NCBI GenBank assembly: GCA_905480195.1
Contig: CAJQPN010000017.1
Coordinates: forward strand, 6,233-70,232
From: an uncultured Acidimicrobiales bacterium
GTDB taxonomy: Bacteria; Actinomycetota; Acidimicrobiia; Acidimicrobiales; Aldehydirespiratoraceae
DNA: 64,000 nt
Direction of reading: 5' to 3'
Shown: positions 31,245 to 57,045 of the stretch, piece after piece
Numbering within the stretch: position 1 is the stretch's first letter
Layout: each line of letters begins with the position of its first letter
Notes under the pieces: generated by a model
Database searches by the model: none
What the model saw: the letters and a program-made list of their open reading frames with translations, nothing else
Told to the model about the DNA's origin: nothing
Made by a program: the position numbers and the translations under genes

Positions 31245-32213
31245 TCAGTTGCTGCGCCGGGATCGACGCCGGGCACCGGTGGGTGCTCGCTCGGCCGGCG
31301 TGAAGTCAACTTCGGGCACCGGCAGCGTGCCGTCAAGGACACCGCGCATCACGGCAAGGTGTGAGGGGTCGTTGCCGCAGCAGCCCCCGATGATGGACAC
31401 CCCGGCGCTGCGCACCCGGTTCGCATGGGCACCCATCACGTCGGGTGACCCGGAATAGACGAGTTCGGTGCCGTGCCAGTGTGGAATGCCGGCATTGGCC
31501 TTGCAGATCACCGGCGTGTCGCCGGCAACCTCGAGCATCTCAGCGAGCGCAGCTTCGGTATCAGCCAGGTTGTTGCCGCAATTCGCACCGAACGCAGCCA
31601 CCTCGAGTTCGAGGAGGCGGGATGCTGCCTGGGCCCCTGTCACCCCCATCATCGTGCGGCCCGCCGTGTCGAAGCTGAGCGTGACGGCGATCGGCAGCTC
31701 AGAAACGGAGCGGACACCTTCGACAGCCGCCTCGATCTCATCGATCGACGACATCGTTTCGATCCAGAGCAGATCGACACCGCCCTCACTGAGACCACGG
31801 GCCTGCTCAGCAAAGGCCGCGGCTGCGTCGACCGCTTGGAGTGAGCCGAGCGGGGCGATGAGTTCGCCGGTTGGGCCGATCGAGCCAGCCACCAGGACGC
31901 GACGCGGGAGCTGATCGACGACGTGGCGGGCGTTGCGGGCAGCCTCGCAATTGAGCTCGACGACGCGGTCGTCGAGCTTGTGGAGCTTGAGCCGGTATCT
32001 GCTTCCACCGAAGGTGTTGGTCAAGACGATGTCGGATCCAACATTGACGTAGGACTCGTGGAGCCCATGCACGACCTCGGGACGATCGAGGTTTAGGCGC
32101 TCCGGCGCATCGCCAGGCTCGAGGCCGGCCGCCATGAGCTGGGTTCCTGTGGCGCCGTCCACGACAAGGAACCCTCGTTCGACAACGAGTTCAGAGAGTA
32201 CGGACTCAGGCAT
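31245..32213 (-). CDS. Homocysteine S-methyltransferase domain protein (betaine-homocysteine methyltransferase Bmt-like)
   Basis: DGATGT, TNTFGG, GSIGPTG, ETMS, GRTMMG, GANCG, KANAGIP, IIGGCCG (Zn ligands). Confidence 0.82.
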   Translation of the reverse strand: MPESVLSELVVERGFLVVDGATGTQLMAAGLEPGDAPERLNLDRPEVVHGLHESYVNVGSDIVLTNTFGGSRYRLKLHKLDDRVVELNCEAARNARHVVDQLPRRVLVAGSIGPTGELIAPLGSLQAVDAAAAFAEQARGLSEGGVDLLWIETMSSIDEIEAAVEGVRSVSELPIAVTLSFDTAGRTMMGVTGAQAASRLLELEVAAFGANCGNNLADTEAALAEMLEVAGDTPVICKANAGIPHWHGTELVYSGSPDVMGAHANRVRSAGVSIIGGCCGNDPSHLAVMRGVLDGTLPVPEVDFTPAERAPTGARRRSRRSN

Positions 32214-36328: not shown

Positions 36329-36380
36329 GCCGTGATGGTACGACGCAGCCCTGTCGGTGAGTCGCCGTAGCATTCGGTTC

Positions 36381-37292
36381 ATGGCCTCGATCAGTCCAGC
36401 AGAGCGTGACGTCGAAGAGGGCATCGCTCCGTGGGACGGCCGCCGCGTACCAATGACCCTTCTCGGCGGCTACCTCGGTAGCGGCAAGACCACCATCCTC
36501 AATGACTTGCTTCGCCGGACCGACCGTCCACTCGCGGTGCTGGTCAATGACGTAGGTGAGATCAACATCGATGCACAGCTGCTCAAGAAGCGGGCGGGTG
36601 AGACGTTGGAGCTCACCGACGGGTGCGTCTGCTGCTCGATGAAGGAGGGCCTCGGAGCGGCACTCGCCAAGTTACGGGCCCGACCCGAGCCGCCTGATCA
36701 CGTGATCATCGAACTCAGTGGCGTGGCAGACCCGACCCAGGTCCTGCCGTGGACGAACTCCGACGGGTTCCGACTCGACGGCCTGATCGTCTTGGCCGAC
36801 GCCACCGCCGTTATCACCCAACTACGCGACGAGCGTCTCCGGCCATTGCTCGAGCGACAGATCACCCCTGCTGATCTCGTGGTGATCTCGAAATCCCAGC
36901 TTGTGACGAGCGATGAACGCACCGCAGCAAAGCGAGCCGTAGCCGCCGTGTCCCTCGACGTTCCGGTCGTCGACGATCTCGACGGCACGGTCGCCTCGAC
37001 GCTGCTCGGTCTGGGCACCCGCCGTGGTCACGATGCCACCGCCGTTCCGCCGCCGACACTGCTCGATTTGCACCGCACCGAGGTGCACCCGCTCCCCCGG
37101 CCAACCACCGGCACCGCGCTGAGCGATCTTCTCGAGGGGCTGCCCGACGACGTCGTTCGGGCCAAGGGCATCGCCGAGGGCCCAGACGGTTCCCGGCTGT
37201 TACTTCAGGTCGTCGGACGCCGCCGTCGAATCACCCTGCTTCCTCGCTCCGAGGATCAGGAACCGACCGATCTCGTCGTCATCCGGTTCTGA
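36381..37292 (+). CDS. CobW/COG0523 GTP-binding metallochaperone
   Basis: GYLGSGKTT, VNDVGEINID, GCVCCS, ELSGVA, RAKG. Confidence 0.9.
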   Translation: MASISPAERDVEEGIAPWDGRRVPMTLLGGYLGSGKTTILNDLLRRTDRPLAVLVNDVGEINIDAQLLKKRAGETLELTDGCVCCSMKEGLGAALAKLRARPEPPDHVIIELSGVADPTQVLPWTNSDGFRLDGLIVLADATAVITQLRDERLRPLLERQITPADLVVISKSQLVTSDERTAAKRAVAAVSLDVPVVDDLDGTVASTLLGLGTRRGHDATAVPPPTLLDLHRTEVHPLPRPTTGTALSDLLEGLPDDVVRAKGIAEGPDGSRLLLQVVGRRRRITLLPRSEDQEPTDLVVIRF

Positions 37293-38265: not shown

Positions 38266-39303
38266 TCACCCTCCAGGCCAGGTGTCTGGCACGCGATAGC
38301 CGGTCGGCCAAGGGTCGGACGGGTCGACGAGGTGGTGGGACACGCCGGTGATCCATGCCCGCCCGCTGATCTCTGGGATGATCGACCCATCTGACGCAAC
38401 CTCAAGGATCTTGCCGCGGAATTCCGAGCCGATGACGGACCGCATGAGCAACTGGTCGCCCACCCCGACCTGGCCTCGGGCGTGTAGGACGGCGAGGCGA
38501 GCCGACACGCCGGTGCCGGTCGGTGATCGATCGAGCTTGCCTGGATCGATCACCGACGTGCTCTGCAGCTCAAACCCATCGGCACCTTCCGAGAGTCGAC
38601 CGGCGATCTGGCAGAATGAGATGTGAGCCCAGTCCGAGTTGGTGGGATGCCGAAAGCCCAGCTGTTCGTTCGCCGCAAGAGTGACCGCCGTGCCGATCTT
38701 TGCAAGGTCGGCAGCCGCAGCCGGCTCTACCGAAACGCCGAGATCGACGGCATCGACCAACACAAAGCTGTCGCCACCGAACGCCGTGTCGACCCGCACC
38801 GAACCAACACCGGGAACGTCGAGTTCTACGTCAAGACGATCGGCGAAGGACGGAAGGTTCCGTATGGCGACGCGCTCGACCTTGCCGGCACGGCACTCGG
38901 CGCGAACGGCGACGAGTCCGCCGGGGGCTTCGATCGTGAACTCGGTGACAGGTTCGACCATCGGCACCCTTCCGGTCTCGAGCAGGACCGTGGCGACACA
39001 CATCGAGTTACTTCCCGACATCGGTGGCGTGTGACAAGGCTCCATGATGATGAAACCAGCGACCGCCTCGGGCGCTACCGGTGGTACGAGCAGATTGACG
39101 TGGCGGAACACGCCACCCCGAGGTTCGTTGAGAACGAGGTTTCGAAGGGTCTGGTCAGCGTCGATCCACCGCGACTGTGCCCAAAGTGAGTCGCCGGGTG
39201 GCGGTTCGACGCCACTCACGATCACGTCTCCAACCTCGCCCTCGGCGTGGCAACCAACGATCTCAATCGAGTCGGCGAGATTGAGGCCATGTGAGTTCGA
39301 CAT
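38266..39303 (-). CDS. Proline racemase family protein, Ser/Thr active site (hydroxyproline dehydratase-like)
   Basis: [28 protein letters not shown]. Confidence 0.88.
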
Positions 39304-39354
39304 GCACGTGAGATTGCCACATGGTGTCGGCCGGATCGGGTCTACGCTGCGCGC

Positions 39355-41670
39355 ATGAGGAGCGTCTCGCCTGTTCTGGTCGTGTCGATCGACGGGATGG
39401 CGTCTCGTCACGTGACCCGCACAACCATGCCGACGCTCACCACGCTCGCTCGCGAGGGCGCTTCGTGCTTCCGTTCGCAGACGGTACGGCCACCCTGGAC
39501 GCTGCCTGTCCACACGACGATGTTTCGGGGTGTCGATCCTGCGAGCCACACAATCACCAACAACACGCCGGGCGAGCCGAAAACAGGTGCTTCCTCCTTT
39601 CTCAAGCTCGCTCGCGAGGCCGGTCAGTCGACGGCAGCTTTCCTGAACTGGCTGCCGCTCGACTCCGTGCTCGAACGAAATGCCACCGAGCGCCGTTTCG
39701 TTATCGACGGGGGCTACGGCCCTGATGACGACCGCCGCTCGATTGAAGCCGCTCTTGAGGCCCTCGCCGAAGGGGTTCATGACCTCGTCTTCGTCTATCT
39801 GAGTCAGCCTGATGCCGACGGGCATCGGTTTGGCTGGGACAGCCCGGAGTACCTCGACGCAGCGAAACGCTCCGACTTCGAGCTCGGTCGACTGCTCGAC
39901 GCGGTGGGGTCCAACGCCTCGGTGCTCGTCACGACCGATCACGGCGGCTTCGAAAAAAACCATGCCGATCCAATCCCGGAGGTGCTCGAGACATTCATCG
40001 TCGTTCGCTCGCCCGGACGCATTGCGCCAGCCTCAGTGTGGGACGCAGCGAGCACACTCGACGTTGCTCCGACCGTCGCCGACCTGTGCGGATTCAAACC
40101 AGATCCGCACTGGGAAGGTCGCTCGTTACTCGGTGCCGAACGCCTGCTGATCGATGTACTGCTGGAGCTGCTCGCCACCACCGCCCACGAGTCATATGGC
40201 GAGCGGGTCACGATGCTCGACCATGCGCTGCAGTCCGCTGCGATCGCTCGGGCTGAAGGCGAAGGCGACGAGATGGTGCTCGCCTGTCTGCTCCACGACG
40301 TGGGTCATGCGCTCGGCGACGCCGGTGACTGGGGACTTCCGGGACACGCAGAGCGCGGCGCACGGGTGCTTCAGCCGTTCCTGGCGCCAGGGATCGTTGA
40401 ACCGATCCGGCACCATGTCCGCGCCAAGCGGTACCGGGTTGCTGTCGAACCCGGCTACCACGACCGGTTGAGCCTGGCATCGCAGATGTCGCTGCAGGAG
40501 CAGGGGGGTCCGTTACCGCCCGACGAGGTCGAACGTTTCGGACGTCTGCCATTCGCCGACGAAGCACTGCGTCTCCGCAACTATGACGATGATGGCAAGG
40601 TCGAAGGTCTCACGATCGAACCACTGGAGTCGTATCGGCCACTTCTTCATGCCGCCTTGGGCGCCAACCCCCCGATCGACCCCTCGTGGGCGCGTGATGC
40701 CTGCCGCTGCCCAGAGTGCCGCGATGTGGGTAACGACCAACATCTGATCGGCGCCAGCGGCCTCGACGGTTGGACCGTCATCACGTCGGCTGTCGATGCC
40801 GGGGGGCTTCGTGTGCTGCTGCACCACCACGACGGCACGCGCCACGAGGCGATTATCCCCTCCCCACCGCCGGGCGAGGAACAGCAGCACACCTGGCCCG
40901 AAGACTTCGCCTCACGGATTCGTGCCACCAGCACGGCACGGTCGGCAGATCTCGGCAGCTTCAGTCGGCAACTCACTACGTTCGGCGTCGCCTTGTTGCA
41001 CGACTGTGGCGACGCAGAGGGGACCGTCGTCGACATCGGCAACACGATCGGTTTCGTTCGCCGAACGAACTACGGGACCCTGTTCGATGTTCGGGCCGAG
41101 CCTGATCCGATCAACCTCGCCTACACGCCGCTCGGGCTCGCAGCCCATACGGACAACCCGTACCGTGAACCCTGCCCGACGGTGCAGTTGCTCCATTGCC
41201 TGCAGGCGGCACGGGAAGGCGGCGCAAGCCGCTTTGTCGACGGCTTCGCCGCTGCGGAATGGCTCCGGACCGAAGCGCCTGACCATTTCCGGTCGTTGAC
41301 GACCACCGACGTCACGTTCAGATTCCACACCGACGACGTGGACCTTCGTGCCAGCCGACCACTGATCGAGCTCGATCGCTCAGGGCAAGTGCGAGCGGTC
41401 AGTGTGAACAACCGCTCGATGGAGCCACCCCAGTTGTCGCCCGGCGCATCGGCCCGGTTCTACGCCGCCTACCGCTCTTTCGTCGATCTCCTGGAGCGTC
41501 CCGACTTCGCAATCGAGATCTCGTTGCGACCCGGCGATTTGGTGGCGTTCAACAACCGGCGGGTGCTTCACGGCCGTCGAGCCTTCTCCAACACAGAACC
41601 CCGCCATCTGCAGGGGTGCTACGTCGACATCGATGCCATCCGTTCGGCTGCCCTGCTCGCTGGCGGCTGA
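39355..41670 (+). CDS. Triple fusion: alkaline phosphatase-superfamily hydrolase + PhnZ/TmpB-like HD oxygenase + TmpA/gamma-butyrobetaine-dioxygenase-like Fe/2OG enzyme
   Basis: AP domain: SIDG, WTLPVH, PDADGH, TTDHGG. HD domain: [33 protein letters not shown]. Dioxygenase: [31 protein letters not shown]. Confidence 0.85.
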
Positions 41671-41725
41671 CGAAGACGAAAACCCGGAGTGTCTCGCGAT
41701 CCCGTCAACTCTCGGGCTTCGTCGA
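41671..41725 (+). terminator. Imperfect hairpin downstream of the fusion gene
   Basis: GACGAA..CCCGGAG pairs with CTCGGG..TTCGTC; no U-tract. Confidence 0.35.
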
Positions 41726-41905
41726 AGTCATCCCAAGCGTGACCGACACAGCATCGGGTCGAACACTACGGCGTTGCATGTGCCGGTCACCTTGACGATT
41801 TCGGCAGCTCCGCAAGGCGGGCGAACCGAGCCTTCAACCCGGTCCTCCTGAGCAGCGAGAACGTGAGCGTTTGATCGAAAAATGGGGCGCAGACATGATT
41901 CAGTC

Positions 41906-44392
41906 ATGACTGGACCCGTCGTCAACGCAGCGATCCCGGCGGTCGGCCTCCCGAATCGAGCGCGTGTGGTGATCATCGGAGGCGGCGTGATCGGTACGAG
42001 CGTTGCCTACCATCTCGCGAAACTCGGCTGGAACGATGTCGTCTTGCTCGAGCGGGACCAGCTCACCTCCGGAACCACCTGGCACGCCGCCGGTCTGATC
42101 GTCTCGGGTGGCATGACCACGGAGACGCTGGCCTGGATGGCGAAGTACTCACGAGATCTCTACGCGACGCTCGAGCAAGAAACGGGCCAATCCACCGGGT
42201 TCAACCCCGTTGGCTATCTCCAAACTGGGAGCACTCCTGAACGCGTCCACAAGCTCCGCCGGGAAGCCGACTTCCTCAGGCTGATGGGGATCGACCGGCA
42301 CGAGATATCCGGCAAGGAGGCCGGCGAACTCTGGCCCCACGTCGACGCCACCGATATCATCTCCGGCTTTTATACCGAGAACGAGGGACGAGCCGACCCC
42401 TACAACGTTGCGTACTCACTGGCCGCAGGTGCCCGCATGCACGGTGTGCAGATCCTGCAAGGGCAGCCGGTGACCGGTATCGGGCAGGCGGGAGGACGGG
42501 TCACGGGGGTCACGACTGCGAGCGGCACGATCGAGGCCGAATACGTCGTGAACTGTGCGGGCATGTGGGCTCGCCAGGTCGGTGCAATGGCGGGCGTCTC
42601 GATACCACTCCAGGCGATCGAGCACGCGTATCTGATCTCGGAACCGTTTGACGGTGTTTCTCCGGACCTGCCGATCTTCGAGGACCCGGATCGGTATGCG
42701 TATTACCGCGAAGAGACCGGTGGCCTCATGGTGGGGCTGTTCGAACCGGTGGCCGCTCCCTGGTCACTCGATGGGGTGCCGATGGACTTCAGCTTCGGTG
42801 AGATTCCGAGCGACTGGGATCGCCTGGCCCCGTTTCTGGAGTTCGCCATGGAAACCCTTCCCGGACTAGCCGATGTCGGAGTCCGAAAGCTCTTTACCGG
42901 CCCCGAGAGTTTCACCCCTGACAACGGGTATCTGATGGGGGAGGCACCCGAGCTCGACAACTTCTTCGTGGCTGCTGGCTTCAACTCACTCGGAATCTTG
43001 AGCGGCGGTGGCGCCGGCTCGATCATTGCGAACTGGATCGTCGACGGGCATCCGCCGATCGACGTCACCGACATCGACATCGCCCGATTGCAGCCGTGGC
43101 AGACCAACCGCTCATATCTCGCAGAGCGCAGCGTCGAATTGCTCGGACGGCTGCACTCGACCGGCTCGTGGCCACACGCAAGCCCGGCGCTGGCCCGCGG
43201 TGTTCGGCGCTCAGTGCTGCACGAACAGCTCGAAACTGCTGGGGCTCGTTTTACCGAGTCGTCGGGATGGGAACTGCCCTCGTGGTTCGGACCCACCGAC
43301 GAGGCGCTCACCAACAAACTGACGTACGCAAGACAGCCTTGGTTCGACCACCACGCTGCAGAACACCGCGCCGTTCGCAGTGCTGTCGCTCTGTTCGACA
43401 TGTCGTCGATGTCGAACTTTGTCGTTCGGGGCCCCGACGCCGAGCGCGTGCTCGACCATCTCTCGGGGAACACGATCGCTGTGCCGGTGGGTCAGTGCGT
43501 CTACACCCAATGGATGAATGTCCGCGGCGGCATCAACGCCGATCTCACCATCACCCGGCTTGGTGACGACCAGTTCTTGATCGTCGTCGCTGAACTCTTC
43601 CATCGCCGCGTCGAGGCGATGCTGCGCAGGGCGATCGGCCATGATCATCACGTTTTCGTGACCGACATGACCTCGGCATACACGATGCTGAGCGTGCAGG
43701 GTCCCAACTCCCGGGCCCTTCTGCAAAACATCACCACTGCGAGTCTCGACAACGACGCCTTCCCGTATTTCACTGCCCAGCAGATCGATCTCGTCCACGG
43801 CCGGGCATGGGCACTTCGAATGAGCTTTGTCGGCGAACTGGGCTGGGAGTTGTACATCCCCACCGAGTTCGCGACCCACATCTACGAGCGGATCGTGGAA
43901 GTTGGCGCCGACCACGGACTTCGTCACGCAGGAATAGAGACGCTCGAGTCGACTCGCACCGAAGCAGGGCGTCTCGACTACGGGCTCGACATCGAGAACT
44001 CCGACTCTCCCCTTGAAGCGGGTCTCGGGTGGGCGGTCGACTTCGACAAGCCGAGCGGCTTTGTCGGCCGCGACGCGCTCCTCGCGCAGCACCAGGGGCG
44101 GCCGTACACGGCTCGCCTCGTTCAGTTCCTGCTCGATGACGCCGAGCCGCTGCTTTACGGCGAGGAACCGATCCTTCGCGATGGCGAGACCGTCGGTTAC
44201 CTCCGCTCAGGAGCGTACGGTCACACGTTGGGCGGCGCCGTGGGGTTTGGATATGTCGAGAACAGCGATGGAGTCACGAAGGACTTCATAGAAAGTGGCA
44301 CCTGGACAATCCGCGTTGCCAGCGATGACGTCGATGCACGGGCATCGTTTCGCTCGATGTACGACCCCTTCAATGAGCGGGTACGCGCCTGA
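41906..44392 (+). CDS. FAD-dependent dimethylglycine/sarcosine dehydrogenase-like protein with GcvT folate domain
   Basis: IIGGGVIG, LTSGTTWHAAG, GPESFTPD, FDMSS, SFVGELGWELY, SGAYGH. Confidence 0.9.
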   Translation: MTGPVVNAAIPAVGLPNRARVVIIGGGVIGTSVAYHLAKLGWNDVVLLERDQLTSGTTWHAAGLIVSGGMTTETLAWMAKYSRDLYATLEQETGQSTGFNPVGYLQTGSTPERVHKLRREADFLRLMGIDRHEISGKEAGELWPHVDATDIISGFYTENEGRADPYNVAYSLAAGARMHGVQILQGQPVTGIGQAGGRVTGVTTASGTIEAEYVVNCAGMWARQVGAMAGVSIPLQAIEHAYLISEPFDGVSPDLPIFEDPDRYAYYREETGGLMVGLFEPVAAPWSLDGVPMDFSFGEIPSDWDRLAPFLEFAMETLPGLADVGVRKLFTGPESFTPDNGYLMGEAPELDNFFVAAGFNSLGILSGGGAGSIIANWIVDGHPPIDVTDIDIARLQPWQTNRSYLAERSVELLGRLHSTGSWPHASPALARGVRRSVLHEQLETAGARFTESSGWELPSWFGPTDEALTNKLTYARQPWFDHHAAEHRAVRSAVALFDMSSMSNFVVRGPDAERVLDHLSGNTIAVPVGQCVYTQWMNVRGGINADLTITRLGDDQFLIVVAELFHRRVEAMLRRAIGHDHHVFVTDMTSAYTMLSVQGPNSRALLQNITTASLDNDAFPYFTAQQIDLVHGRAWALRMSFVGELGWELYIPTEFATHIYERIVEVGADHGLRHAGIETLESTRTEAGRLDYGLDIENSDSPLEAGLGWAVDFDKPSGFVGRDALLAQHQGRPYTARLVQFLLDDAEPLLYGEEPILRDGETVGYLRSGAYGHTLGGAVGFGYVENSDGVTKDFIESGTWTIRVASDDVDARASFRSMYDPFNERVRA

Positions 44393-44532: not shown

Positions 44533-46557
44533 CTATGGCGCAGTGGCGCGCTCGCGGCGAAAACGAACGGCCACCGGAATGTGGGCTTGCAGCTCGCGGG
44601 CGTACTGATGGCCTGCGTACACCGACGTGGCGATCGTGCCGGGTGCCTTGCAGTCGCCGATCGGGGTGATGTCGATTTCATCAACGAGCGAGTGATATAG
44701 CGCATCGTTCGGGGTCCGGGCGGTGACCATCACGATCGACGAGGTCTCTACAGTCCGTATCTGTCCGGTGTAGATGCACTCGAGATCGACGCTGTCTGAT
44801 CGAACCTCGGCAAGCGAGTGACCGGTCGCGATCGAGATCCCGAGGCCGAGGACCCGAGCCTGGATCCGGTGCTGCTCCTCGGTATGTGTCGTCCAGGTCG
44901 AGATCTCGTTGGCGGGCGTCACGATCGTGACCTCGAGGCCCTCGCTGCGCAGCCGTTCTGCGAGAATCCCCCCGAGGTAATAGTGGTCGTCGTCGTAGAT
45001 CACGACAGGCCCGTCAGGGATCGTTCCGTCGAGGACATCGTCAGCAGTAAGCACCGATGGCTGGTCCCAACCCGGCACGGGGTTCTCCAGCCAACGACCG
45101 GTGCCGTCTCGGTTCCATGTCGAACCGCTTGCAAGCACGACGTGATCGGCACCGAACTCGCGAATCTGCATCTCGTCGACGACGCTGTCGAGGTAGACCT
45201 CGACGCTGGGCAGCTTGTCGATCTGGGTGAGACGCCAGTCGCGAACTCTGCCGTACTCGGCGAGGCCTGGCATTCGTGCTTCACGGGTGACGCGGCCGCC
45301 GAGCTCGGTGCGAGCCTCGGTCAACACGACATCGAACCCTCGTTGGCCGAGCGCCATTGCTGCCTCGAGTCCGGCTGGACCAGATCCGATGACGAGTACC
45401 GATGCGTCGGCCTTCTTGGGCGGGATGAACTCGGGGTGCCAACCCTTGCGCCACTCCTCCCCCATTGTCGGGTTTTGGGTACAACGGATTGGTGTACCGG
45501 TCTGGTCTCCCGAGTAGCAGATGTTGAAGCCGATGCACTCGCGAATGTCGTCGTCGCGGCCCTCGGCAATCTTGGTGGGAAGAAACGGATCAGCGATCGA
45601 CGGTCGGGCAGCGCCGACGAAATCGATGATCCCCTGGTTGACCATCCGGAGCATCGTTTCGGGTGACGTGAAGCGTCCGACGCTGACAACCGGCTTGCCG
45701 GTGACGCCCTTGACCCATGCCATCGTGTCCTCGAGCCCACCTTCCTTCACGAATCGCGAGGTACCCATCTCGTAGGAGTAATCGTCGACGACGATGTCCC
45801 AGAGATCAGGCAGGTCTTTGAGCATCTCGATGACCTCTCGCGGCTCATGGTTGTCGAGATCCTCTACTGCGCCGACTTCACCAGCCGAGAAGCGCACCGC
45901 CACGGCACACTCGTCGCCGATTGCTTCCTTGGTCTCCTCGAGCAGTTCCCGAATCAGACGGACCCTGTTCTTGAGTGCGCCGCCGTACTCGTCGTTGCGG
46001 GTGTTACCGGGATCGAGGAACTGTTTCAGCAGGTACCAGTGACACGCGTAGACGTAGACAACGTCGAATCCTGCCCGCTTCGCTCGTACAGCGGCGTCGA
46101 GATGCCATTGCTTGAGCTCTCGAATGTCGCGCTTGTCCATCTGACGGGTCTGCACCGGATCCCAGACACCGGCAGGGCGACTCGTTGGACCGATCGGCGT
46201 CTCACGGCTGTAGTGGTTTGCGCTTGCGGCACCGCCATGCCACAGCTCGACACCGGCAAGTGCGCCGTGGGCGTGGACCTTGTCCACCATCAGGGCGTGC
46301 GAACGGATGTCTTCGTCGTCCCACAGAGTGGCCGACGGGTACGGATCGTCATCGGAACTCGGGTGGATCGAGCAGTACTCGGTGTTGATGACGCCCCAGC
46401 CTCCTTCGGCCTTCATCTCACGGAGCGCAGCCAGAGTCTGAGGCTTCTTGTAGCCGATCCCGGTGCAGTGGGGCACCTGATAGAAGCGATTCGGTGCCGT
46501 CACCGGACCGATCCTCACCGGCTCGAACAGGACGTCAAAACGAGGGTCACGGGGCAT
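44533..46557 (-). CDS. Trimethylamine/dimethylamine/histamine dehydrogenase family flavoprotein
   Basis: NRFYQVPHC (flavinylation Cys), MKAEGGW, YVYACH, ARPSIADPFLP, ECIGFNIC...CTQN, GSGPAGLE; AGGAGG RBS. Confidence 0.88.
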   Translation of the reverse strand: MPRDPRFDVLFEPVRIGPVTAPNRFYQVPHCTGIGYKKPQTLAALREMKAEGGWGVINTEYCSIHPSSDDDPYPSATLWDDEDIRSHALMVDKVHAHGALAGVELWHGGAASANHYSRETPIGPTSRPAGVWDPVQTRQMDKRDIRELKQWHLDAAVRAKRAGFDVVYVYACHWYLLKQFLDPGNTRNDEYGGALKNRVRLIRELLEETKEAIGDECAVAVRFSAGEVGAVEDLDNHEPREVIEMLKDLPDLWDIVVDDYSYEMGTSRFVKEGGLEDTMAWVKGVTGKPVVSVGRFTSPETMLRMVNQGIIDFVGAARPSIADPFLPTKIAEGRDDDIRECIGFNICYSGDQTGTPIRCTQNPTMGEEWRKGWHPEFIPPKKADASVLVIGSGPAGLEAAMALGQRGFDVVLTEARTELGGRVTREARMPGLAEYGRVRDWRLTQIDKLPSVEVYLDSVVDEMQIREFGADHVVLASGSTWNRDGTGRWLENPVPGWDQPSVLTADDVLDGTIPDGPVVIYDDDHYYLGGILAERLRSEGLEVTIVTPANEISTWTTHTEEQHRIQARVLGLGISIATGHSLAEVRSDSVDLECIYTGQIRTVETSSIVMVTARTPNDALYHSLVDEIDITPIGDCKAPGTIATSVYAGHQYARELQAHIPVAVRFRRERATAP

Positions 46558-46678
46558 GGACCCTCCTAGGGTCATCGGATCGAGTGCTCAGCCTGCGGTA
46601 GGCCGATCGGCTCTTTGCCGAGAGACGCGCGGGCAGCCCGCTCGTGTCGGCGCCAGAACTTTTCTTGTCGTGCCGCCC

Positions 46679-46730: not shown

Positions 46731-47840
46731 TTAGCCCTTCGCCTCAACAAACGCGTCGGAGTAGTTGACCTCGAAGTCGCCGGTGTCTTCCAGCGCTTCG
46801 AGCGAATCCACACCGCCGGCGAGCACGGCCGGGTCATTGACGAAATCCAAGAGGTCTTCGTCTAGACCCGCGACAGCTGCCGCATTCGGCGTGTTGTAGT
46901 AGTTCCAGTTGGTCAAGGCCGCGCCCTGATCGGCGCCGTACATCCAGTTGATGAACGTGTGCGCAGTACAGGGGTGCGGTGCGTCATGTGCAATCGCGAA
47001 GTTGTCGATCCAGCGCGTCCCACCCTCTTCGGGCACGAAGTAGACGTAGTCACCGGGGTTATCGGTCTCGAGGAACTGAACGAACATGTCGCCGGAGTAG
47101 CCGTGAGCGATCACGGTCTCACCCGAGGTGAGGAACTCATCAGCAGAGTCGGTGTTGAACGCCGCAAGACGACCCGCAGTGGCGGCGACGAGTTCGGTCG
47201 CCTCGGCGAGTTCGTCCTCACTCGTGGTGTTCATCGAGTACCCGAGGTACTTCAGCGCAGCACCCATGGTCTCGCGTGGGTCGTTGAGCAGCTGGATTTG
47301 ACCATCGAACTGGCCGGAGATGGCGGGGTCGAAGATGATGCCCCACGACCGAGGGAAGTCGGTTCCGACCACAGCGGTGTTGACGGCAATGCCCGTTGTA
47401 CCCCACTGATAGGGCAGCGAGTACCCACCTTCCGGGTCGAAGTAGAGGTTGCTGAAGTCGTCACTCAGGTTCGACGAATTCGGGATCGCGTCGTAGTTGA
47501 GCAGCATCAGCGAGCCGGCTGAGATCATGACCGAGACCATGTAGTCCGATGGGACGATGACATCGAAGCCGCTGCCACCCTCTGAGACGATCGGCTGCAT
47601 CGCCTCGTTGGAATCGTAACTGTCGAGCGAATAGGAGATGCCGTACTCGTCGGCAAACTCCTGGAGCTGCTCCTCATCGATGTACTCGGCCCAGTTGTAC
47701 ATGGCCAGATCACCATCGATCTCGCCGACTTCGCAGTCAGCGCCCCCGCTGGACTCGTCATCGTCACTGCCGCAAGCAGCTGCAAGGAGCGTGAGGGTGA
47801 AGAGCCCGGCGAGGAGCCGGAGCCAGTGCTTTGTGTTCAT
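46731..47840 (-). CDS. potD: Spermidine/putrescine ABC substrate-binding lipoprotein (PotD-like)
   Basis: Lipobox LAAAC, YNWAEYID, YDSNE, PSDY, PYQWGTTG, YSGD, PEEG..WIDN. Confidence 0.88.
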   Translation of the reverse strand: MNTKHWLRLLAGLFTLTLLAAACGSDDDESSGGADCEVGEIDGDLAMYNWAEYIDEEQLQEFADEYGISYSLDSYDSNEAMQPIVSEGGSGFDVIVPSDYMVSVMISAGSLMLLNYDAIPNSSNLSDDFSNLYFDPEGGYSLPYQWGTTGIAVNTAVVGTDFPRSWGIIFDPAISGQFDGQIQLLNDPRETMGAALKYLGYSMNTTSEDELAEATELVAATAGRLAAFNTDSADEFLTSGETVIAHGYSGDMFVQFLETDNPGDYVYFVPEEGGTRWIDNFAIAHDAPHPCTAHTFINWMYGADQGAALTNWNYYNTPNAAAVAGLDEDLLDFVNDPAVLAGGVDSLEALEDTGDFEVNYSDAFVEAKG

Positions 47841-47896
47841 TATTTCTCCTTTCGACCCGAAGGCCGATTCCAGGGACTTAGTAGAAAAAGGCAGTG

Positions 47897-48745
47897 TCAA
47901 GCTGTGCCTGAGCCACTGCGGCTGCGTTCGAGTAACAAGGACAGCACAACAAGGAGCATCGAGGCCACCAGCATCACCACAGAGATGGCGTTGATCAGCG
48001 GAGTGACGCCCTTTCGGATCAAACCGAACACATACACCGGCAAGGTCGTTCCTCCCGGGCCGGTGACGAACTGGGTGATCACGACGTCGTCAAGAGACAG
48101 GGTCATGGCGAGCAAGCCGCCACCCGCAATACCAGGGAGGATCTGCGGCATGGTGACGTACCGGAACGCCTGCCATCGGGTGGCGTAAAGGTCGAGTGCC
48201 GCCTCCTCCATCTTGGAGTCCATGCCGGCGAGTCGCGCCCGCACGACGACCGACACGAAACTGATGCTGAACGCAATGTGGCTCAGGGTGATCGAACCGA
48301 CTCCCTTGGCGAGCTCGATGCCGAACACGGTGCCGAGAAGCTCAAAGAACTGTGAGAAGAACAGCAACAGCATCACGGCCATGGTTACGTCGGGGATGAT
48401 GATCGGAAGGTAGAGCAGAGCGTCGAAAACCTGCTTCCCGCGAAATTCGAAGCGCTCAAGCGCCAGCGCCGACATCGTCCCGAGAACGACAGAGACCACC
48501 GTCGATACGAGTGCTATCTGGAGAGATGTCGACAGCGCGCTTCGTGCGTTCCGACTTTCTGCGAATTCTGCGTACCACTCGAGCGTCCACCCACCCCACG
48601 TTCCGACATTGCGACTGTCGCTGAACGAGAAGACGACGAGCAACAAAATTGGCGCATAGAAGAAGAAATAGACCAGCCACCCGTTGGTGTGAAGGAAGAA
48701 TTTCGTCCAGCCGTGCGGCTCGACCGCGCTGGTTTGCTTGCTCAC
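47897..48745 (-). CDS. potC: Polyamine ABC permease (PotC-like)
   Basis: EEAALDLYA, SLDDVVIT, TLPVYV. Confidence 0.88.
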   Translation of the reverse strand: MSKQTSAVEPHGWTKFFLHTNGWLVYFFFYAPILLLVVFSFSDSRNVGTWGGWTLEWYAEFAESRNARSALSTSLQIALVSTVVSVVLGTMSALALERFEFRGKQVFDALLYLPIIIPDVTMAVMLLLFFSQFFELLGTVFGIELAKGVGSITLSHIAFSISFVSVVVRARLAGMDSKMEEAALDLYATRWQAFRYVTMPQILPGIAGGGLLAMTLSLDDVVITQFVTGPGGTTLPVYVFGLIRKGVTPLINAISVVMLVASMLLVVLSLLLERSRSGSGTA

Positions 48746-49650
48746 AGCGTCCTCCCTCCCTTCCGGAAGTACACGACAGTGGCAGCCAGCATGATCGCCA
48801 TCAAGACGAAAGACATCGCAGCACCGAACGGCCAGTTCCGTGCGGTCAGGAACTGGGTGACGATGTAACTTCCCAGCAATGTCGTCTTGGCTCCGCCAAG
48901 GATCTCGGGCGTGACGTAGGCGCCAAGGCTCGGAATGAAGCAGAGAATCGACCCGGCGATCACCCCGGGCATCGACAGCGGCAACAGCACGTGCCGGAAC
49001 GACTGGAAGCCATTCGCGTAGAGATCACGACTCGCCTCGAGTAGTCGCCGGTCGATTCGCTCGATCGCTGCGTACAACGGAAGGATCATGAACGGCAGGA
49101 AGCCGTAGACGAGCCCCAAGACGACCGCGGTCTGGGTGAACAGATACTCGTGCTCCCCGAGACCGACGAACTCGGTAGTTTTCGTTAGCGGACCGTCGTT
49201 GCCGAGGATGACTCGCCACGCGTAATTGCGAACCAAGAAGTTGGTCCAGAACGGGATCATCACGAAGACCAGCATCACGTTGCGTACCCGCAGACTTCTC
49301 GTCGCTAGGTAGTAGGCGAACGGGTAGCCGATCACGAGACAGATGACCGTGGTGAGCGCTGCCAACCAGACGGAGCGAAAGAAGATCTCGCGGACGAGTG
49401 GCTCGGCCAACTTGACATAGCTGTCGACGTTCCAACCCGAGAGATCGGTACCGCCGAAACGGTTGCGGGTCGCGAACGAGTAAACGACGACGATGACGAG
49501 AGGTACTGCGAAGAACAGCGTGAGGTAGCCGAATTCCGGCAGTGCCAACAGGAATCCCCGTCGTCGTTCCTGGCGCTCTGCAGCCGCCTCGAACTCCGGC
49601 GTTACCTCAAGGACCTCTTCATCGGCCTCGGGCGCCTCCACAGCTGTCAT
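48742..49650 (-). CDS. potB: Polyamine ABC permease (PotB-like)
   Basis: PFWTNFLVR, LPFMILPLY, EASRDLYA, NWPFGAA. Confidence 0.88.
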   Translation of the reverse strand: MTAVEAPEADEEVLEVTPEFEAAAERQERRRGFLLALPEFGYLTLFFAVPLVIVVVYSFATRNRFGGTDLSGWNVDSYVKLAEPLVREIFFRSVWLAALTTVICLVIGYPFAYYLATRSLRVRNVMLVFVMIPFWTNFLVRNYAWRVILGNDGPLTKTTEFVGLGEHEYLFTQTAVVLGLVYGFLPFMILPLYAAIERIDRRLLEASRDLYANGFQSFRHVLLPLSMPGVIAGSILCFIPSLGAYVTPEILGGAKTTLLGSYIVTQFLTARNWPFGAAMSFVLMAIMLAATVVYFRKGGRTL

Positions 49651-50711
49651 CAGTCGGTCACCACCGAGATGGCGGACGGGTCCCAACTGATCGACACATC
49701 GGTGCCCGGCTCGCAGACCTGCATTCCGGGCCGGTTCTCCTCCCGTACCTCCATGGTCATCCAGTCGAGCCGTATGTCGTACACGCGGGCGTTGCCGAGG
49801 TAGGTGATCCGCTCGACGATCCCATCGACAGAGGTTTCCCCCGGCGGAATATCTCCCCGGTCTCGAATGTGCGCTCGTTCGGGCCGGAGACTGACGGCCA
49901 CCGCAGTGCCGGTGGCGTGCTCACTCGGTGCAGCTACCCGGGCTCCGTTGGCGAGACAGACCGTGTCGTGGTTCTCGACGGTACCTTCGAGCAGATTTGT
50001 TTGGCCGATGAAGTTTGCGACGAACCGATTGACAGGCTTTTCGTAGATTTCCTCCGGCGTAGCAACCTGGAGAAGGCGGCCTTCATTCATCACGGCGATC
50101 CGATCGCTCATTGTGAGCGCTTCTTCTTGGTCATGGGTGACAAAGACGAAGCTGATGCCGAGTTCCTCTTGGAGCCGCTTGAGCTCTCCTTGCATCTCCT
50201 GGCGCAGTTTGAGATCAAGCGCACCGAGCGGCTCGTCGAGCAACAGCACCTTCGGCCTGTTGACGAGTGCTCGAGCCAGCGCCACGCGTTGCTGCTGGCC
50301 ACCCGACATCTGGGTCGGCCTACGCGCTTCGAGGCCGGCGAGCTGCACCGTGGTGATCATCTCACGGGCAGCCGCGCGAGCCTCGGCCTTCCCCACGCTG
50401 CTCATCTTCAAACCGAAGGCGACGTTGTCGAGCACGTTCATGTGGGGGAACAGCGCGTAGTTCTGAAAGACGGTGTTGACGGGTCGCTTGTTCGGAGGCA
50501 GCGTTCCGACCTCATCGCCGAAGATCTTGAGGCTGCCCTCGGTCGGAAAGTCGAGACCGGCGATCATGCGAAGCGTCGTGGTCTTGCCGCAGCCGGAAGG
50601 ACCGAGCAATGCAAAGAACTCGCCGTCTTCGATGACGAGATCAATGGCGTCGACCGCGACAACGTCGCCGAATCGCTTCGTAATCGCTGTGAGTTCAACA
50701 GCTGCGGACAT
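49650..50711 (-). CDS. potA: Polyamine ABC ATP-binding protein (PotA-like)
   Basis: [36 protein letters not shown]-terminal TOBE region. Confidence 0.9.
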
Positions 50712-51163
50712 CAGTTGGTTCCCCAAGCGTAATTCTGCTGCACCATCCGCAGATAGGTCATGATTTCTACATCGCTGACGGCATCGGTGTCGCGGATCTG
50801 GTCACTCACTTCGAGCAGGTGTTTACGATCGCGACACACGATCTCGGCGAGAACGTCGAAGCGACCCGTCGCGACGACGGTGTAGTCAACAGACTCGATC
50901 TGACTGATCTTCTCGGCGGTGGCGTCAACCGCACCCGACACCTTGATACCGAGCATCGCCTGGAATGGATACCCGAGAGAGACAGGGTCGGTGACTGCCA
51001 CGATTTGGATGACGCCCCGATCTTGGAGTCGGTTGACCCGCTGACGGACGGCGGCCTCGCTGAGCCCAACCTGCGGTGCAAGTCGCGAGTAGGCGGCCCG
51101 GCCATCGACCTGGAGTTCCCGGATGATCGCCTTGTCGATTTCGTCGATGTCGAAGGAAGCCAT
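50711..51163 (-). CDS. Lrp/AsnC family regulator
   Basis: [32 protein letters not shown]. Confidence 0.9.
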
Positions 51164-52527
51164 TATCGAAAACGTTCCATTTCCCCCATGGCCTCTGTGA
51201 GGGCCTGACGGATGACCTGGTTCATGGTGTCGAACTCCGCCTGGCCTGCGATCAGCGGCGGTGACAGCTGAATCACCGGCTCTCCGCGAGCATCAGCTCG
51301 ACACAACAGACCGAGTTCAGCGAGGCGATTCGACAGAAACGATCGCAACAGGTGATGGGCCTCTGCAGCGGTGAAGGTCTCCTTCGTTCCTTTGTCCTTC
51401 ACCAGTTCGATTCCGTAGAAGTAGCCCATCCCACGCACGTCACCAACGATCGGCAGGTCGCTGAGATCGTCAAGTGCAGCCCGGAACGACGCCTCGTTTT
51501 CCAACACATTGCCGCAGAGACCGTCTCGCTCGAAAAGGTCGAGGTTGGCGAGCGCCACCGCACACGAGACGGGATGACCGGCGAAGGTGTACCCGTGGAG
51601 GAACTGCTCGTCGGTGTCGGCGAACGGTTCGGCGATCTTGTCGCTCACGAGCATGGCGCCGAGCGGGGCGTACCCAGACGTGAGCCCTTTGGCTGAGGTG
51701 ACGATGTCGGGCTGATAGCCGAGGCGCTCACAACCAAACATCGTGCCGAGGCGCCCGTAGGCGCAGATCACCTCGTCGGAGACGAGCAGCACGCCATACG
51801 TGTCGCAGATCTCACGAACCCGTTGGAAGTACCCATCAGGAGGCACGAAACAGCCGCCTGCGTTCTGCACCGGTTCGAGAAAGACCGCGGCGATGGTCTC
51901 GGGCCCCTCACGCAGAATGGCCTGCTCGATCTCTTCGGCAAAGTACGAATCGTCGGCTGCGTGGGGCGGCAAACGGTAGCTGTTGGTGGCAGGCACCTTG
52001 ATCGCACCTGGAACGAGCGGCTCGAACATGCCCTTTACCGAGGCCAAGCCGGTGATCGACAACGCACCCATCGTGACGCCGTGATAACTGAGATCACGGC
52101 TGATCGCCTTCGTGCGAAGCGGCTCACCCTTGGCCTTGAAGTACTGACGAGCGAGCTTCCACGCCGACTCGACCGCCTCCGAACCTCCACTGGTGAAGAA
52201 CACCCTGTTCAGATCGCCGGGCGCAAGGTGGGCGAGGCGAGCGGCGAGGTGGACCGCCGCCGGGTGTGCATACGTCCAGATCGGGAAGAACGCAAGGGTC
52301 TCGGCCTGGGCGCCTGCTGCGGCAGCGAGTTCGGACCGGCCGTATCCGGCCTGGGTGGTGTAGAGCCCTGCGAGGCCGTCGAGGTAGCGCTTGCCCGTCG
52401 TATCCCAGACATAGCAGCCTTCACCTCGCTCGATGACTGTCATGCCGTCAACACTGCGACCGAGGCTCGAGAACTGACCCCACAGATGCCGGTTTGCCAG
52501 CTCGGCTAGTTCGACGTTCGACGTCAC
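51163..52527 (-). CDS. Class III PLP aminotransferase (putrescine/omega-amine type)
   Basis: YLDGLAGL, SGGSEA, YHG, EPVQNAGG, DEVICAYGR, AKGLTSGY, HGYTFAGHP; GGAGG RBS before GTG 52527. Confidence 0.9.
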   Translation of the reverse strand: MTSNVELAELANRHLWGQFSSLGRSVDGMTVIERGEGCYVWDTTGKRYLDGLAGLYTTQAGYGRSELAAAAGAQAETLAFFPIWTYAHPAAVHLAARLAHLAPGDLNRVFFTSGGSEAVESAWKLARQYFKAKGEPLRTKAISRDLSYHGVTMGALSITGLASVKGMFEPLVPGAIKVPATNSYRLPPHAADDSYFAEEIEQAILREGPETIAAVFLEPVQNAGGCFVPPDGYFQRVREICDTYGVLLVSDEVICAYGRLGTMFGCERLGYQPDIVTSAKGLTSGYAPLGAMLVSDKIAEPFADTDEQFLHGYTFAGHPVSCAVALANLDLFERDGLCGNVLENEASFRAALDDLSDLPIVGDVRGMGYFYGIELVKDKGTKETFTAAEAHHLLRSFLSNRLAELGLLCRADARGEPVIQLSPPLIAGQAEFDTMNQVIRQALTEAMGEMERFR

Positions 52528-52576
52528 GGTTATCCCTCCAGCTCGCCACGGATTCAACACCACACCACCATCACCC

Positions 52577-52593
52577 GCAACCGAATCGGTTGC
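52577..52593. promoter_or_regulatory. Perfect palindrome in the divergent promoter (candidate Lrp/AsnC operator)
   Basis: GCAACCGA-A-TCGGTTGC between the divergent aminotransferase and GNAT starts. Confidence 0.55.
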
Positions 52594-52626
52594 ATACGTC
52601 GGCTGCGGGGCACAGAATCGGCGTTC

Positions 52627-53244
52627 ATGGGTGAGCTGCAGTACGTCAATCTCTCCGTCGAGTACGCCGAGGAACTCGAAGAACTCGAACTCGCGGTCTT
52701 CTCCACGATCAACCCGGTCGACCTCTACGACGCGGCCGAACTCCGCACACTCGCTTCGGTCTTTCCCGAGGGAAATTTCGTAGCCCTCGATCAAGGCAGA
52801 CCCATCGGCATGGGACTCGGCATCCTGACCAACTTCGACTTCGAGCACACCCAACACTCCCTAGCTGAGGTGGGTGGTACTGAACTCCACGACCCCGACG
52901 CGGATTGGTACTACGGCACCGACATCTCGGTGTATCCCGAGTACCGCGGTCGAGGGGTCGGGCGCCGACTCTACGAGCTTCGCAAGGACTGCGTGCGATC
53001 ACTCGGCAAGCGAGGCATCGTCGCCGGCGGAGTCATCCCCGGCTTCGCAGACCACATCGACTTCATGAGTGCCCAGGAGTACATCGACAAGGTCGTGGCT
53101 GGCGACCTCTACGACCCGACGCTCACCTTCCAGTTGGAGAACGGCTTTCAGGCCTGCGGCGTGATCGAGAACTACCTCGACGATGCATCGGTCGGCAACA
53201 ACTCGGTGCTCATCGTGTGGGAGAATCCCGATCACCAGCCATGA
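52627..53244 (+). CDS. GNAT-family N-acetyltransferase
   Basis: FPEG, YYGTDISVYPEYRGRGVGRRLY, DPTLTFQLENGF. Confidence 0.85.
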   Translation: MGELQYVNLSVEYAEELEELELAVFSTINPVDLYDAAELRTLASVFPEGNFVALDQGRPIGMGLGILTNFDFEHTQHSLAEVGGTELHDPDADWYYGTDISVYPEYRGRGVGRRLYELRKDCVRSLGKRGIVAGGVIPGFADHIDFMSAQEYIDKVVAGDLYDPTLTFQLENGFQACGVIENYLDDASVGNNSVLIVWENPDHQP

Positions 53245-53594
53245 CCGACTTCGACACCATCCGTACCCTCACCGCCACCATCGACAGTCTGTTCGACGCG
53301 ATGGAGCCTGACCCGGAAAAGCCTGCCGAACTCGACTCGGTGTGGCGTTTCGCTTCGCTCGGCTCCCGCGCGCTGGAGTCCGGCGTATGGGAAGCCAGCA
53401 CTGCGACCTGGACCGAAGACGAGTATCCCGTGGAGGAGGTCTGTGTCATCTTGGCCGGTCACCTTCGTCTGACTGACGCCGACGGCGCAGCGCACGACCT
53501 CCGCACAGGCGATGCGTTTCACCTCCCCAAAGGCTGGTCGGGAACCTGGGAGGTCGTGGAGGACATGCGCAAGTTCTACGTCATTCTCCCGTGA
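53241..53594 (+). CDS. Cupin-domain protein (DUF861/EutQ-like)
   Basis: SGVWEA, EEVCVILAG, GDAFHLPKGWSGTW..RKFYV. Real start is ATG 53241, overlapping the GNAT stop. Confidence 0.85.
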   Translation: MTDFDTIRTLTATIDSLFDAMEPDPEKPAELDSVWRFASLGSRALESGVWEASTATWTEDEYPVEEVCVILAGHLRLTDADGAAHDLRTGDAFHLPKGWSGTWEVVEDMRKFYVILP

Positions 53595-54982: not shown

Positions 54983-54985
54983 CGG

Positions 54986-56362: not shown

Positions 56363-56375
56363 GCTGCCACAGCCA

Positions 56376-57014: not shown

Positions 57015-57045
57015 GCGGGGAGCGTACGCCGTACAGTGCGCGGCG

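Follow-up and report, generated by a model that had tools for sequence, protein, structure and literature searches.

A three-domain protein of Acidimicrobiia joining a compact hydrolase to a diiron oxygenase and a TmpA-like dioxygenase: a candidate single-chain route from phosphonate ester to betaine and phosphate

A stretch of 64,000 nucleotides from an uncultured Acidimicrobiales bacterium of the Aldehydirespiratoraceae (assembly GCA_905480195.1, contig CAJQPN010000017.1, positions 6,233 to 70,232 of the forward strand; the whole stretch is referred to here as the window) encodes a 771-residue protein in which a compact hydrolase domain of the alkaline phosphatase (AP) superfamily is followed, in the same chain, by an HD-domain diiron oxygenase of the PhnZ/TmpB type and a TmpA-like Fe(II)/2-oxoglutarate (2OG) dioxygenase of the TauD family. 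We tentatively propose, at slightly less than an even chance, that this protein is a cytoplasmic enzyme with three active sites that catabolises a quaternary-ammonium phosphonate from its ester to betaine and phosphate. The N-terminal hydrolase and the order of the oxygenases, HD before TauD, are the new part, the fusion of two such oxygenases being already known. A description of a protein combining AP, HD and TauD domains was not found in the literature searched, a coverage outside which most subscription journals and supplements lie.

The gene is a single ATG-started reading frame that runs without interruption in the list of open reading frames (ORFs) of the window, and is divided as follows.

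39355..41670 (+), whole three-domain ORF, 771 residues, stop codon included (ORF list and domain searches)
39355..40140 (+), compact NPP/alkaline-phosphatase-superfamily hydrolase domain, residues 1-262 (Pfam, AlphaFold2 model, Foldseek, conservation)
40141..40674 (+), PhnZ/TmpB-type HD-domain diiron oxygenase, residues 263-440 (NCBIfam, PDB matches, ligand conservation)
40675..40944 (+), BBOX/TmpA-type N-terminal zinc module, residues 441-530, with C450, C452, C455 and H497 (NF049936 alignment, conservation)
40945..41667 (+), TmpA-like Fe(II)/2-oxoglutarate dioxygenase core, residues 531-771 (PF02668, PDB match to TmpA)

An initial annotation, made from the letters of the window, had described one uninterrupted 771-residue ORF with three motif-complete domains, and the ORF list, Pfam and NCBIfam agree on this arrangement. 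Its borders (about 40135 and 40660) match those at 40140/40141 and 40674/40675 within a few codons, and every motif that it quoted is present in the translation, namely SIDG (11-14), WTLP (48-51, containing T49), DADGH (153-157) and TDHGG (194-198) in the hydrolase, and C450-x-C452-x-x-C455, H598-T-D600 and H739-G-R741 in the C-terminal part. Among 100 full-length relatives, between 94 and 100 retain each of the proposed catalytic residues of the three domains. In Pfam, Phosphodiest (PF01663) is matched at residues 7-219 with 88.5 bits (cut-off 23), accompanied in the same domain by weaker Sulfatase and Metalloenzyme matches, HD (PF01966) at residues 288-359 with 29.8 bits (cut-off 22) and TauD (PF02668) at residues 530-756 with 160.8 bits (cut-off 27).

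The same architecture recurs in many relatives. Of 8000 candidates in a full-length homology search, 165 reached E <= 0.001; among the 120 relatives listed, 100 have 740-830 residues and align over their whole length at 46-99% identity; these are the 100 relatives used for all counts of conservation. Contigs of three DNA runs, from three studies, cover the gene with no indels and no joints: one extends across the whole of 39000-42000, and both domain junctions are also crossed by two further contigs. Of 41 related genomes, 12 contain one uninterrupted full-length match, while in G005 and G006 the protein is split over contig ends and in G008 (locus L004) the frame breaks near residues 70-73. 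A scan with the AP domain, taking one genome per species, yielded 40 loci, 30 of which show one frame from the AP domain to the stop codon (27 of the 28 in a frame check, together with L012, L021 and L036). Four loci are cut by contig ends (L022, L038, L041, L042), three are remnants (L043, L047, L048) and one (L050) is a Myxococcales protein that is 26% identical; L016 has a frameshift at residues 342/343, and L027 is split exactly at the AP/HD junction, where the stop codon of the AP ORF overlaps the ATG of the HD-TauD ORF. Some of the broken, split or remnant copies (L016, L027, L043, L047, L048, G008 and G636) occur in single-contig, chromosome-scale metagenome-assembled genomes (MAGs), with indel errors as a possible cause. 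An artefactual joining of separate genes, which the few split or broken relatives (L027, L016, G008) might recall, is a negligible prospect in view of the single frames in the 30 genome loci and in seven metagenome loci described below, the 12 uninterrupted genomes, the 100 relatives and the indel-free contigs of three studies.

The two oxygenases are the more secure part of the proposal. Sequence comparison makes it likely that they perform PhnY*/PhnZ-type chemistry on a substrate most like 2-(trimethylammonio)ethylphosphonate (TMAEP), although the pair is not a certified TmpA/TmpB equivalog. The C-terminal dioxygenase, taken with its zinc module, matches the NCBIfam model for TmpA (NF049936) at residues 442-766 with 308.4 bits (309 in a second search; cut-off 400) and that for BBOX (TIGR02409) over the same residues with 275.3 bits (cut-off 414.75). 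Against the PDB, the TauD part scores 201.9 bits with TmpA (6npb), 130.5 with BBOX and 100.8 with DfmD, which places it nearer to TmpA than to the carnitine-forming BBOX, as its initial comparison with TmpA had implied. About 45% of the 225 aligned TmpA columns are identical by a hand count of the PDB alignment, and the fusion and TmpA have HTDNPYR in common where BBOX has HTDYPAL. The facial triad (H598, D600, H739) and the zinc-module residues (C450, C452, C455, H497) are each present in 100 of 100 relatives, the module aligning with the N-termini of TmpA and BBOX, and no match to Pfam DUF971 (PF06155) was found in the three-domain protein. When TauD positions were compared with those of 28 hand-picked TmpA-like proteins (14 two-domain and 14 single-domain), leaving out the HD part, which in the two-domain proteins comes in the opposite order, 75 positions proved conserved and identical in the two groups and one conserved but different. 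Among the nearest shorter relatives, five, with 42-45% identity, bear the NCBI name 2-trimethylaminoethylphosphonate dioxygenase. A TmpA-model match at E <= 1e-40 is present in seven of the 301 Actinomycetota genomes sampled, and in none of them does it pass the cut-off.

The HD domain is matched by TIGR03276 (Phn-HD) at residues 265-433 with 161.2 bits, under the cut-off of 214.6, by the TmpB model NF049941 with 132.1 bits (cut-off 300) and by the hydroxymethylphosphonate PhnZ1 model NF052439 with 130.8 bits (cut-off 300). Among solved structures TmpB (6npa, 98 bits) scores above PhnZ (83 bits), so that the domain is slightly nearer to TmpB. Oxygenases of this type are characterised by an H...HD...H...H...D motif and a YxxE loop, according to the accessible part of PMC8177086. 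The diiron ligands H290, H314/D315, H331, H354 and D411 align with those of TmpB and PhnZ and, like H318, are each found in 100 of 100 relatives.

The N-terminal domain is modelled by AlphaFold2 with a mean predicted local distance difference test (pLDDT) of 89.7 and a predicted template modelling (pTM) score of 0.91. In Foldseek, the nucleotide pyrophosphatase/phosphodiesterase (NPP) of Xanthomonas, Xac NPP (7n1s), is among the best matches of this model (probability 1.00, TM score 0.80 on the query), the others being ENPP1/3/5/6 and sulfatases, with 13-18% identity across the best matches. T49 is present in 99 and N70 in 97 of the 100 relatives, D13 in 94 (the remaining six having N-terminal gaps), and D153, H157, D195, H196 and H203 in 98 each. 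By comparison with the motifs of NPPs, we take T49 (39499-39501) to be the nucleophile and N70 the NPP-type Asn, with D13, D153, H157, D195, H196 and H203 as presumed ligands of a two-metal site; the spacing of 21 residues between T49 and N70 likewise equals the nucleophile-Asn spacing of NPPs. The domain is much smaller than a full-size NPP catalytic domain, the PF01663 match spanning only profile positions 1-246 of 342 and the length being 262 residues compared with 380-400 for Xac NPP and ENPP5/6. Its first beta-strand (residues 7-12 in the AlphaFold2 model) opens the protein directly, with no signal peptide; because the chain starts at this strand and leaves no room for such a peptide, the enzyme is taken to be cytoplasmic. 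Membrane phosphonolipids or surface glycans are thus unlikely to be direct substrates, and only imported soluble esters fit.

Searched with a profile of the AP domain, 1.84 billion representatives yielded 16,893 proteins at E <= 0.001, and 109 of these reach E <= 1e-30. Beyond the fused family, the homologues are mostly stand-alone proteins of about 255-300 residues with about 28-35% identity, named 'alkaline phosphatase family protein', which are homologous over the full length of the AP domain and have the same catalytic residues. They match no NCBIfam equivalog, carry generic names only, and are grouped with the AP domain in the ESM Atlas. The fused subfamily differs from them at A16/R18 (R16/D18 in the stand-alone proteins), F214, R218, W229 and other positions. 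A possible aromatic cage specific to trimethylammonium, formed by W99, W161, Y166 and W253, was considered and rejected, since the same aromatic residues are common to the stand-alone family and hence are not diagnostic. Release of the phosphonate from an ester is the leading hypothesis for what the AP domain does, one that we hold at a little under evens, and its substrate is conjectural. A more specific idea, that the domain sits on the diiron oxygenase as a hydrolase dedicated to phosphonate monoesters and frees quaternary aminophosphonate head groups from glycerol or sugar esters, is more doubtful, at perhaps one chance in three.

For the protein as a whole, we infer the identity of the substrates and the order of the steps as follows. 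An imported, water-soluble phosphonate monoester, the analogue of a phosphate diester, such as a glycerol- or sugar-linked head group, would be hydrolysed by the NPP-type domain at Thr49, and the free phosphonate would then reach the oxygenases. The TmpA-like Fe/2OG dioxygenase would hydroxylate C1 of TMAEP, or of a very close analogue, and the HD diiron oxygenase would subsequently carry out the oxidative cleavage of the C-P bond that yields glycine betaine and phosphate, with the betaine passing to a route of nearby betaine--homocysteine S-methyltransferase (BHMT) and dimethylglycine (DMG)-dehydrogenase-like enzymes. The initial annotation had likewise let one protein cover the route from ester to betaine plus phosphate, starting from phosphonolipid, glycan or nucleotide esters. 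The single-protein route is retained here, on the strength of the domains and of their likeness to TmpA and TmpB, whereas lipid and glycan esters have become unlikely starting points in the absence of a signal peptide.

Coupling of the hydrolase to the oxygenases was addressed with a complex prediction in which the AP domain and the HD-TauD part, two halves of one natural protein, were modelled as separate chains. The pair scored 0.80 and the best of three controls 0.00, with the verdict 'supports binding'; the 0.80 mark is reached by 58 of 80 solved complexes and by 2 of 110 mismatched pairs, a rough calibration, as the alignments were our own. At least 83% of contacts are common to the runs, and the partner pLDDT is at least 89. 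In the model, residues 17-39 and 224-230 of the AP domain contact residues 263-268, 337-348 and 435-440 of the full-length protein, all in the HD domain. The contact surface includes R18 and W229, two residues that are specific to the fused subfamily. The prediction thus supports docking of the AP domain on the HD domain. Metagenomic loci point the same way: among the best 80 of 591 confirmed oxygenase loci, HD precedes TauD in seven, the AP domain is fused in frame in seven of these seven, and an HD-then-TauD locus lacking AP was not found. The remaining 73 loci are tmpA-then-tmpB operons, fusions (six in one frame) or tmpA alone. One metagenome locus (L105:2541-6983) encodes, in consecutive ORFs that overlap by 1-4 bases, a major facilitator superfamily (MFS) transporter, a TmpA-like protein, an HD protein and a full-length NPP (PF01663, 174 bits) with a hydrophobic, signal-like N-terminus; a convergent class-V aminotransferase gene follows the chain. 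As an independent association of an NPP with tmpA/tmpB-like genes, this operon supports the coupling; it may represent the three-enzyme combination a second time, in unfused form.

TmpA and TmpB of Leisingera caerulea (6npb-d, 6npa) belong to the same two families, have the same metal-ligand sets and are the best-scoring solved relatives, and the betaine and phosphate predicted as products of the fusion fit the BHMT and DMG-dehydrogenase-like genes near it. The fusion differs from TmpA and TmpB in being one chain, with HD before TauD, an extra N-terminal hydrolase and a Y-x-E loop in the HD domain. In the accessible part of PMC10590968, the only pathway described for trimethylated 2-aminoethylphosphonate (M3AEP) consists of two iron oxygenases; the AP domain lies outside the published TmpAB pathway, as the initial annotation had stated. 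A 2OG hydroxylase and an HD C-P oxygenase in one chain are also found in PhoF of Fonsecaea multimorphosa, a fungal PhnY-PhnZ fusion that accepts 2-aminoethylphosphonate (AEP) and aminopropylphosphonate, as given in the accessible part of PMC10574752. By that description PhoF is eukaryotic and has two domains only, with no hydrolase, whereas the present fusion is bacterial and has the AP domain in addition.

Bacterial fusions of the same oxygenase pair occur in actinomycetes (e.g. P0327, P0351, P0369 and P0371), with a TauD part 42-45% identical to that of the three-domain protein; NCBI lists them as 2-trimethylaminoethylphosphonate dioxygenase, and they have the opposite order, no AP domain and a recognisable DUF971 (PF06155) match. 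These TauD-then-HD forms are 523-552 residues long and come from Kitasatospora, Streptosporangium, Longispora and relatives (P0314-P0378). HD-then-TauD forms of 466-534 residues, 48-71% identical, come from the marine clade of the three-domain protein (P0274-P0300), and those of 494-534 residues may be truncated gene calls or split forms. The opposite domain orders indicate at least two independent fusions of the oxygenases in bacteria, and since fungal PhoF and the actinomycete proteins are oxygenase-only fusions, joining the oxygenases is not in itself the novelty. With the NPP family (Xanthomonas NPP, ENPP1/3/5/6/7) the AP domain has in common the fold (TM scores of 0.74-0.80 on the query), the Pfam family and, on the roles assigned by motif, the Thr nucleophile, the Asn 21 residues further on and the six metal ligands. 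It differs in length (262 residues compared with about 380 or more), in identity (13-18%, with only partial phmmer matches), in lacking the inserted region that shapes the substrate pocket of NPPs, and in being cytoplasmic and fused. ENPP6 and ENPP7 act on glycerol- or ceramide-linked substrates, from which they release the phospho head group that bears choline, and the ENPP6 entry among the fold matches is titled 'choline-specific glycerophosphodiester-phosphodiesterase'.

Two genes of the window are consistent with betaine as the product.

41882..44392 (+), DMG-dehydrogenase/oxidase-like flavoprotein with DAO, FAO_M, GCV_T and GCV_T_C domains (Pfam)
31245..32213 (-), betaine--homocysteine S-methyltransferase (NF005718, 365 bits, cut-off 338)

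The former lies 211 bases downstream of the fusion on the same strand and the latter about 7 kb upstream. This context is not kept across the family: in neighbourhoods of the 40 genome loci and the window, delimited by crude ORF calls and clustered, the DMG-dehydrogenase-like gene (cluster c27) stands next to the fusion in only three of 41. In the 87%-complete genome of the organism no PhnJ was found, and no phosphonatase or phosphoenolpyruvate (PEP) mutase over the cut-off.

Several observations weigh against the proposed route. Every equivalog cut-off is missed (TmpA 308/400, BBOX 275/415, Phn-HD 161/215, TmpB 132/300), and specificity for TMAEP is to that extent presumptive. The substrate loop of the HD domain reads Y281-G-E283, a Y-x-E that is one residue short of the YxxE of PhnZ and TmpB; its Tyr and Glu are kept in 100 of 100 relatives, and the HMMER alignment places a gap here against PhnZ and shifts the Tyr against TmpB. 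The catalytic and the conserved aromatic residues of the AP domain are common to the very large stand-alone family of about 260 residues, and comparison with that family revealed no feature by which the AP pocket would be adapted to a trimethylammonium head group. In the modelled interface the AP domain meets the HD domain and not the hydroxylase, though the hydroxylase would act next, and an NPP gene lies beside only one of the 73 tmpA/tmpB-type metagenome loci (flanks of at most 4 kb, often cut). No transporter or other neighbour is kept family-wide, the commonest cluster, of luciferase-like monooxygenase (LLM)-type oxidoreductases, reaching 10 of 41 neighbourhoods, so that context does not name the imported substrate. 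Finally, a choline dehydrogenase, BetA, is encoded elsewhere in the genome (G000:C4:3416-5059, minus strand; 808 bits, over the cut-off); the organism probably also makes betaine from choline, and a role of the AP domain on phosphocholine is thereby conceivable.

The last of these points leads to an alternative in which the AP domain is an independent scavenging phosphatase or diesterase for phosphocholine or glycerophosphocholine, fused for co-expression, with the choline oxidised to betaine elsewhere. Besides the choline dehydrogenase, the wide occurrence of the compact AP family in the form of separate cytoplasmic proteins that retain the same catalytic residues, the presence of ENPP6 with phosphocholine and of choline sulfatase among the structural neighbours, and the want of a phosphonate-specific feature in the AP domain would all be expected under such a role. 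We nevertheless regard it as unlikely, because the HD-to-TauD order is seen only together with AP in the metagenome loci, the modelled AP-HD interface withstood its controls and contains residues specific to the fused subfamily, and in the L105 operon a different NPP is paired in the same way. The steps might also run in the reverse order, the oxygenases accepting the esterified phosphonate and the AP domain hydrolysing the phosphate monoester left after C-P cleavage. The modelled contact with HD, which would be the last oxygenase step, agrees with this order, and the below-cut-off oxygenase scores and altered Y-x-E loop could reflect a bulkier substrate. However, the residues conserved in TmpA-like proteins are nearly all unchanged (including R604, R736, R741 and R750), which argues for the same free phosphonate head group, and the Thr and Asn site is that of a diesterase-type NPP rather than of a classical monoesterase with Arg; this order appears quite improbable.

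Alternatively, the substrate of the oxygenases could be a different one, for instance 2-AEP or its mono- or dimethyl form, 3-aminopropylphosphonate, or a betaine without phosphonate of the kind taken by the carnitine-forming BBOX, a possibility that overlaps with those above. The missed cut-offs, which extend to the TmpA-model matches of the 301 Actinomycetota genomes, are compatible with it, as are the acceptance of AEP and aminopropylphosphonate by PhoF (accessible part of PMC10574752) and the name 'gamma-butyrobetaine dioxygenase' given to relatives in JGI records. Against it, TmpA outscores BBOX in both the PDB and NCBIfam comparisons, betaine-catabolic genes are close by, and a substrate that is no phosphonate is unlikely for a dioxygenase joined to a PhnZ/TmpB-type C-P oxygenase, a partner that BBOX lacks; overall, another substrate seems to us to have a small share of the probability, well below that of the TMAEP-like phosphonate favoured here.

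Other genes around the fusion differ between subgroups. After the LLM oxidoreductases, the neighbour clusters include CobW (8 of 41 neighbourhoods) and cytochrome P450 (7 of 41), whereas other subgroups have unrelated neighbours (class IV aminotransferase, GS-like (glutamine synthetase-like), serpin, permease, alpha/beta hydrolase, PPTase (phosphopantetheinyl transferase) and SulP genes), with three neighbour ORFs of these subgroups giving no Pfam match. The CobW/COG0523-type GTPase of the window (36357-37292, plus strand; cluster c3) lies two genes upstream of the fusion and recurs in the window-like subgroup together with the F420-type LLM oxidoreductase and the P450; a metallochaperone link of CobW to a multi-metal enzyme is conceivable. 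Immediately upstream, a gene for a trans-3-hydroxy-L-proline dehydratase (38266-39330, minus strand; 554 bits, cut-off 550) is oriented divergently, with 24 bases between its start and that of the fusion gene, a gap that hardly fits two divergent promoters with leaders, so that the transcripts are possibly leaderless. Downstream, between the DMG-dehydrogenase-like gene and a PotD-type ABC transporter, 44533-46575 (minus strand) encodes a 680-residue flavoprotein combining old yellow enzyme (OYE) and pyridine-nucleotide-disulphide oxidoreductase parts, whose best match, the mycofactocin-system FadH/OYE family, is far below the cut-off. In the closest relatives (L011, L012, L014 and L042) the ABC transporter directly adjoins the fusion gene. 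The region 46731-57125 contains a PotABCD-like transporter, a 563-residue class III aminotransferase, two FAD oxidoreductases and a haloacid dehalogenase (HAD)-type hydrolase. It was considered as an AEP cluster and rejected, all its genes being far below the phosphonate equivalog cut-offs (the two FAD oxidoreductases score 223 and 208 bits against 'aminophosphonate oxidoreductase' TIGR03329, cut-off 633) and the HAD protein matching phosphoglycolate phosphatases; from its gene content it looks like an amine or polyamine cluster.

The three-domain family is real but patchy. Apart from L050, the genome loci all come from Acidimicrobiales or Actinomycetota MAGs, with carriers that include Candidatus Poriferisodalis, Candidatus Aldehydirespiratoraceae and several Acidimicrobiaceae bins, and with source names that point to sponge symbionts and marine plankton; the source names of a few relatives in the homology search read Gammaproteobacteria or Pseudomonadota. 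Of 401 genomes sampled evenly across the order, 12 contain the AP domain at E <= 1e-40, and these represent 5 of 215 genera and four families. Nine of these 12 matches lie in open frames of 756-835 residues, besides which there are frames of 696 and 728 residues cut by contig ends (G005 and G469) and two frames of 325-357 residues (G590 and G636). Metagenomes of estuary, seawater, marine and ballast-water samples contain near-identical DNA (14 DNA runs, five studies). In one metatranscriptome run, two short identical contigs (39566-39758 and 40700-40859) hint at transcription, with carry-over of DNA as another possible source, and sampled words of the gene are present in small shares in five other RNA runs and next to none in a sixth.

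Phosphonates are a large pool of marine phosphorus and occur mostly in esters, as head groups of lipids and glycans. To our knowledge, the described pathways of phosphonate catabolism all start from the free phosphonate, and no enzyme for the step of ester release is named in the accessible part of PMC10574752. An NPP-type hydrolase joined to the only known M3AEP-degrading chemistry is a concrete and expressible candidate for this step, and with this combination the way in which phosphonate esters enter catabolism can be tested directly. The three-domain architecture is concealed by current annotation ('TauD/TfdA family dioxygenase', 'HD domain-containing protein'). If the proposed route is true, the fusion would supply the missing release enzyme within a self-contained three-step machine, spread among sponge-associated and planktonic Acidimicrobiia.

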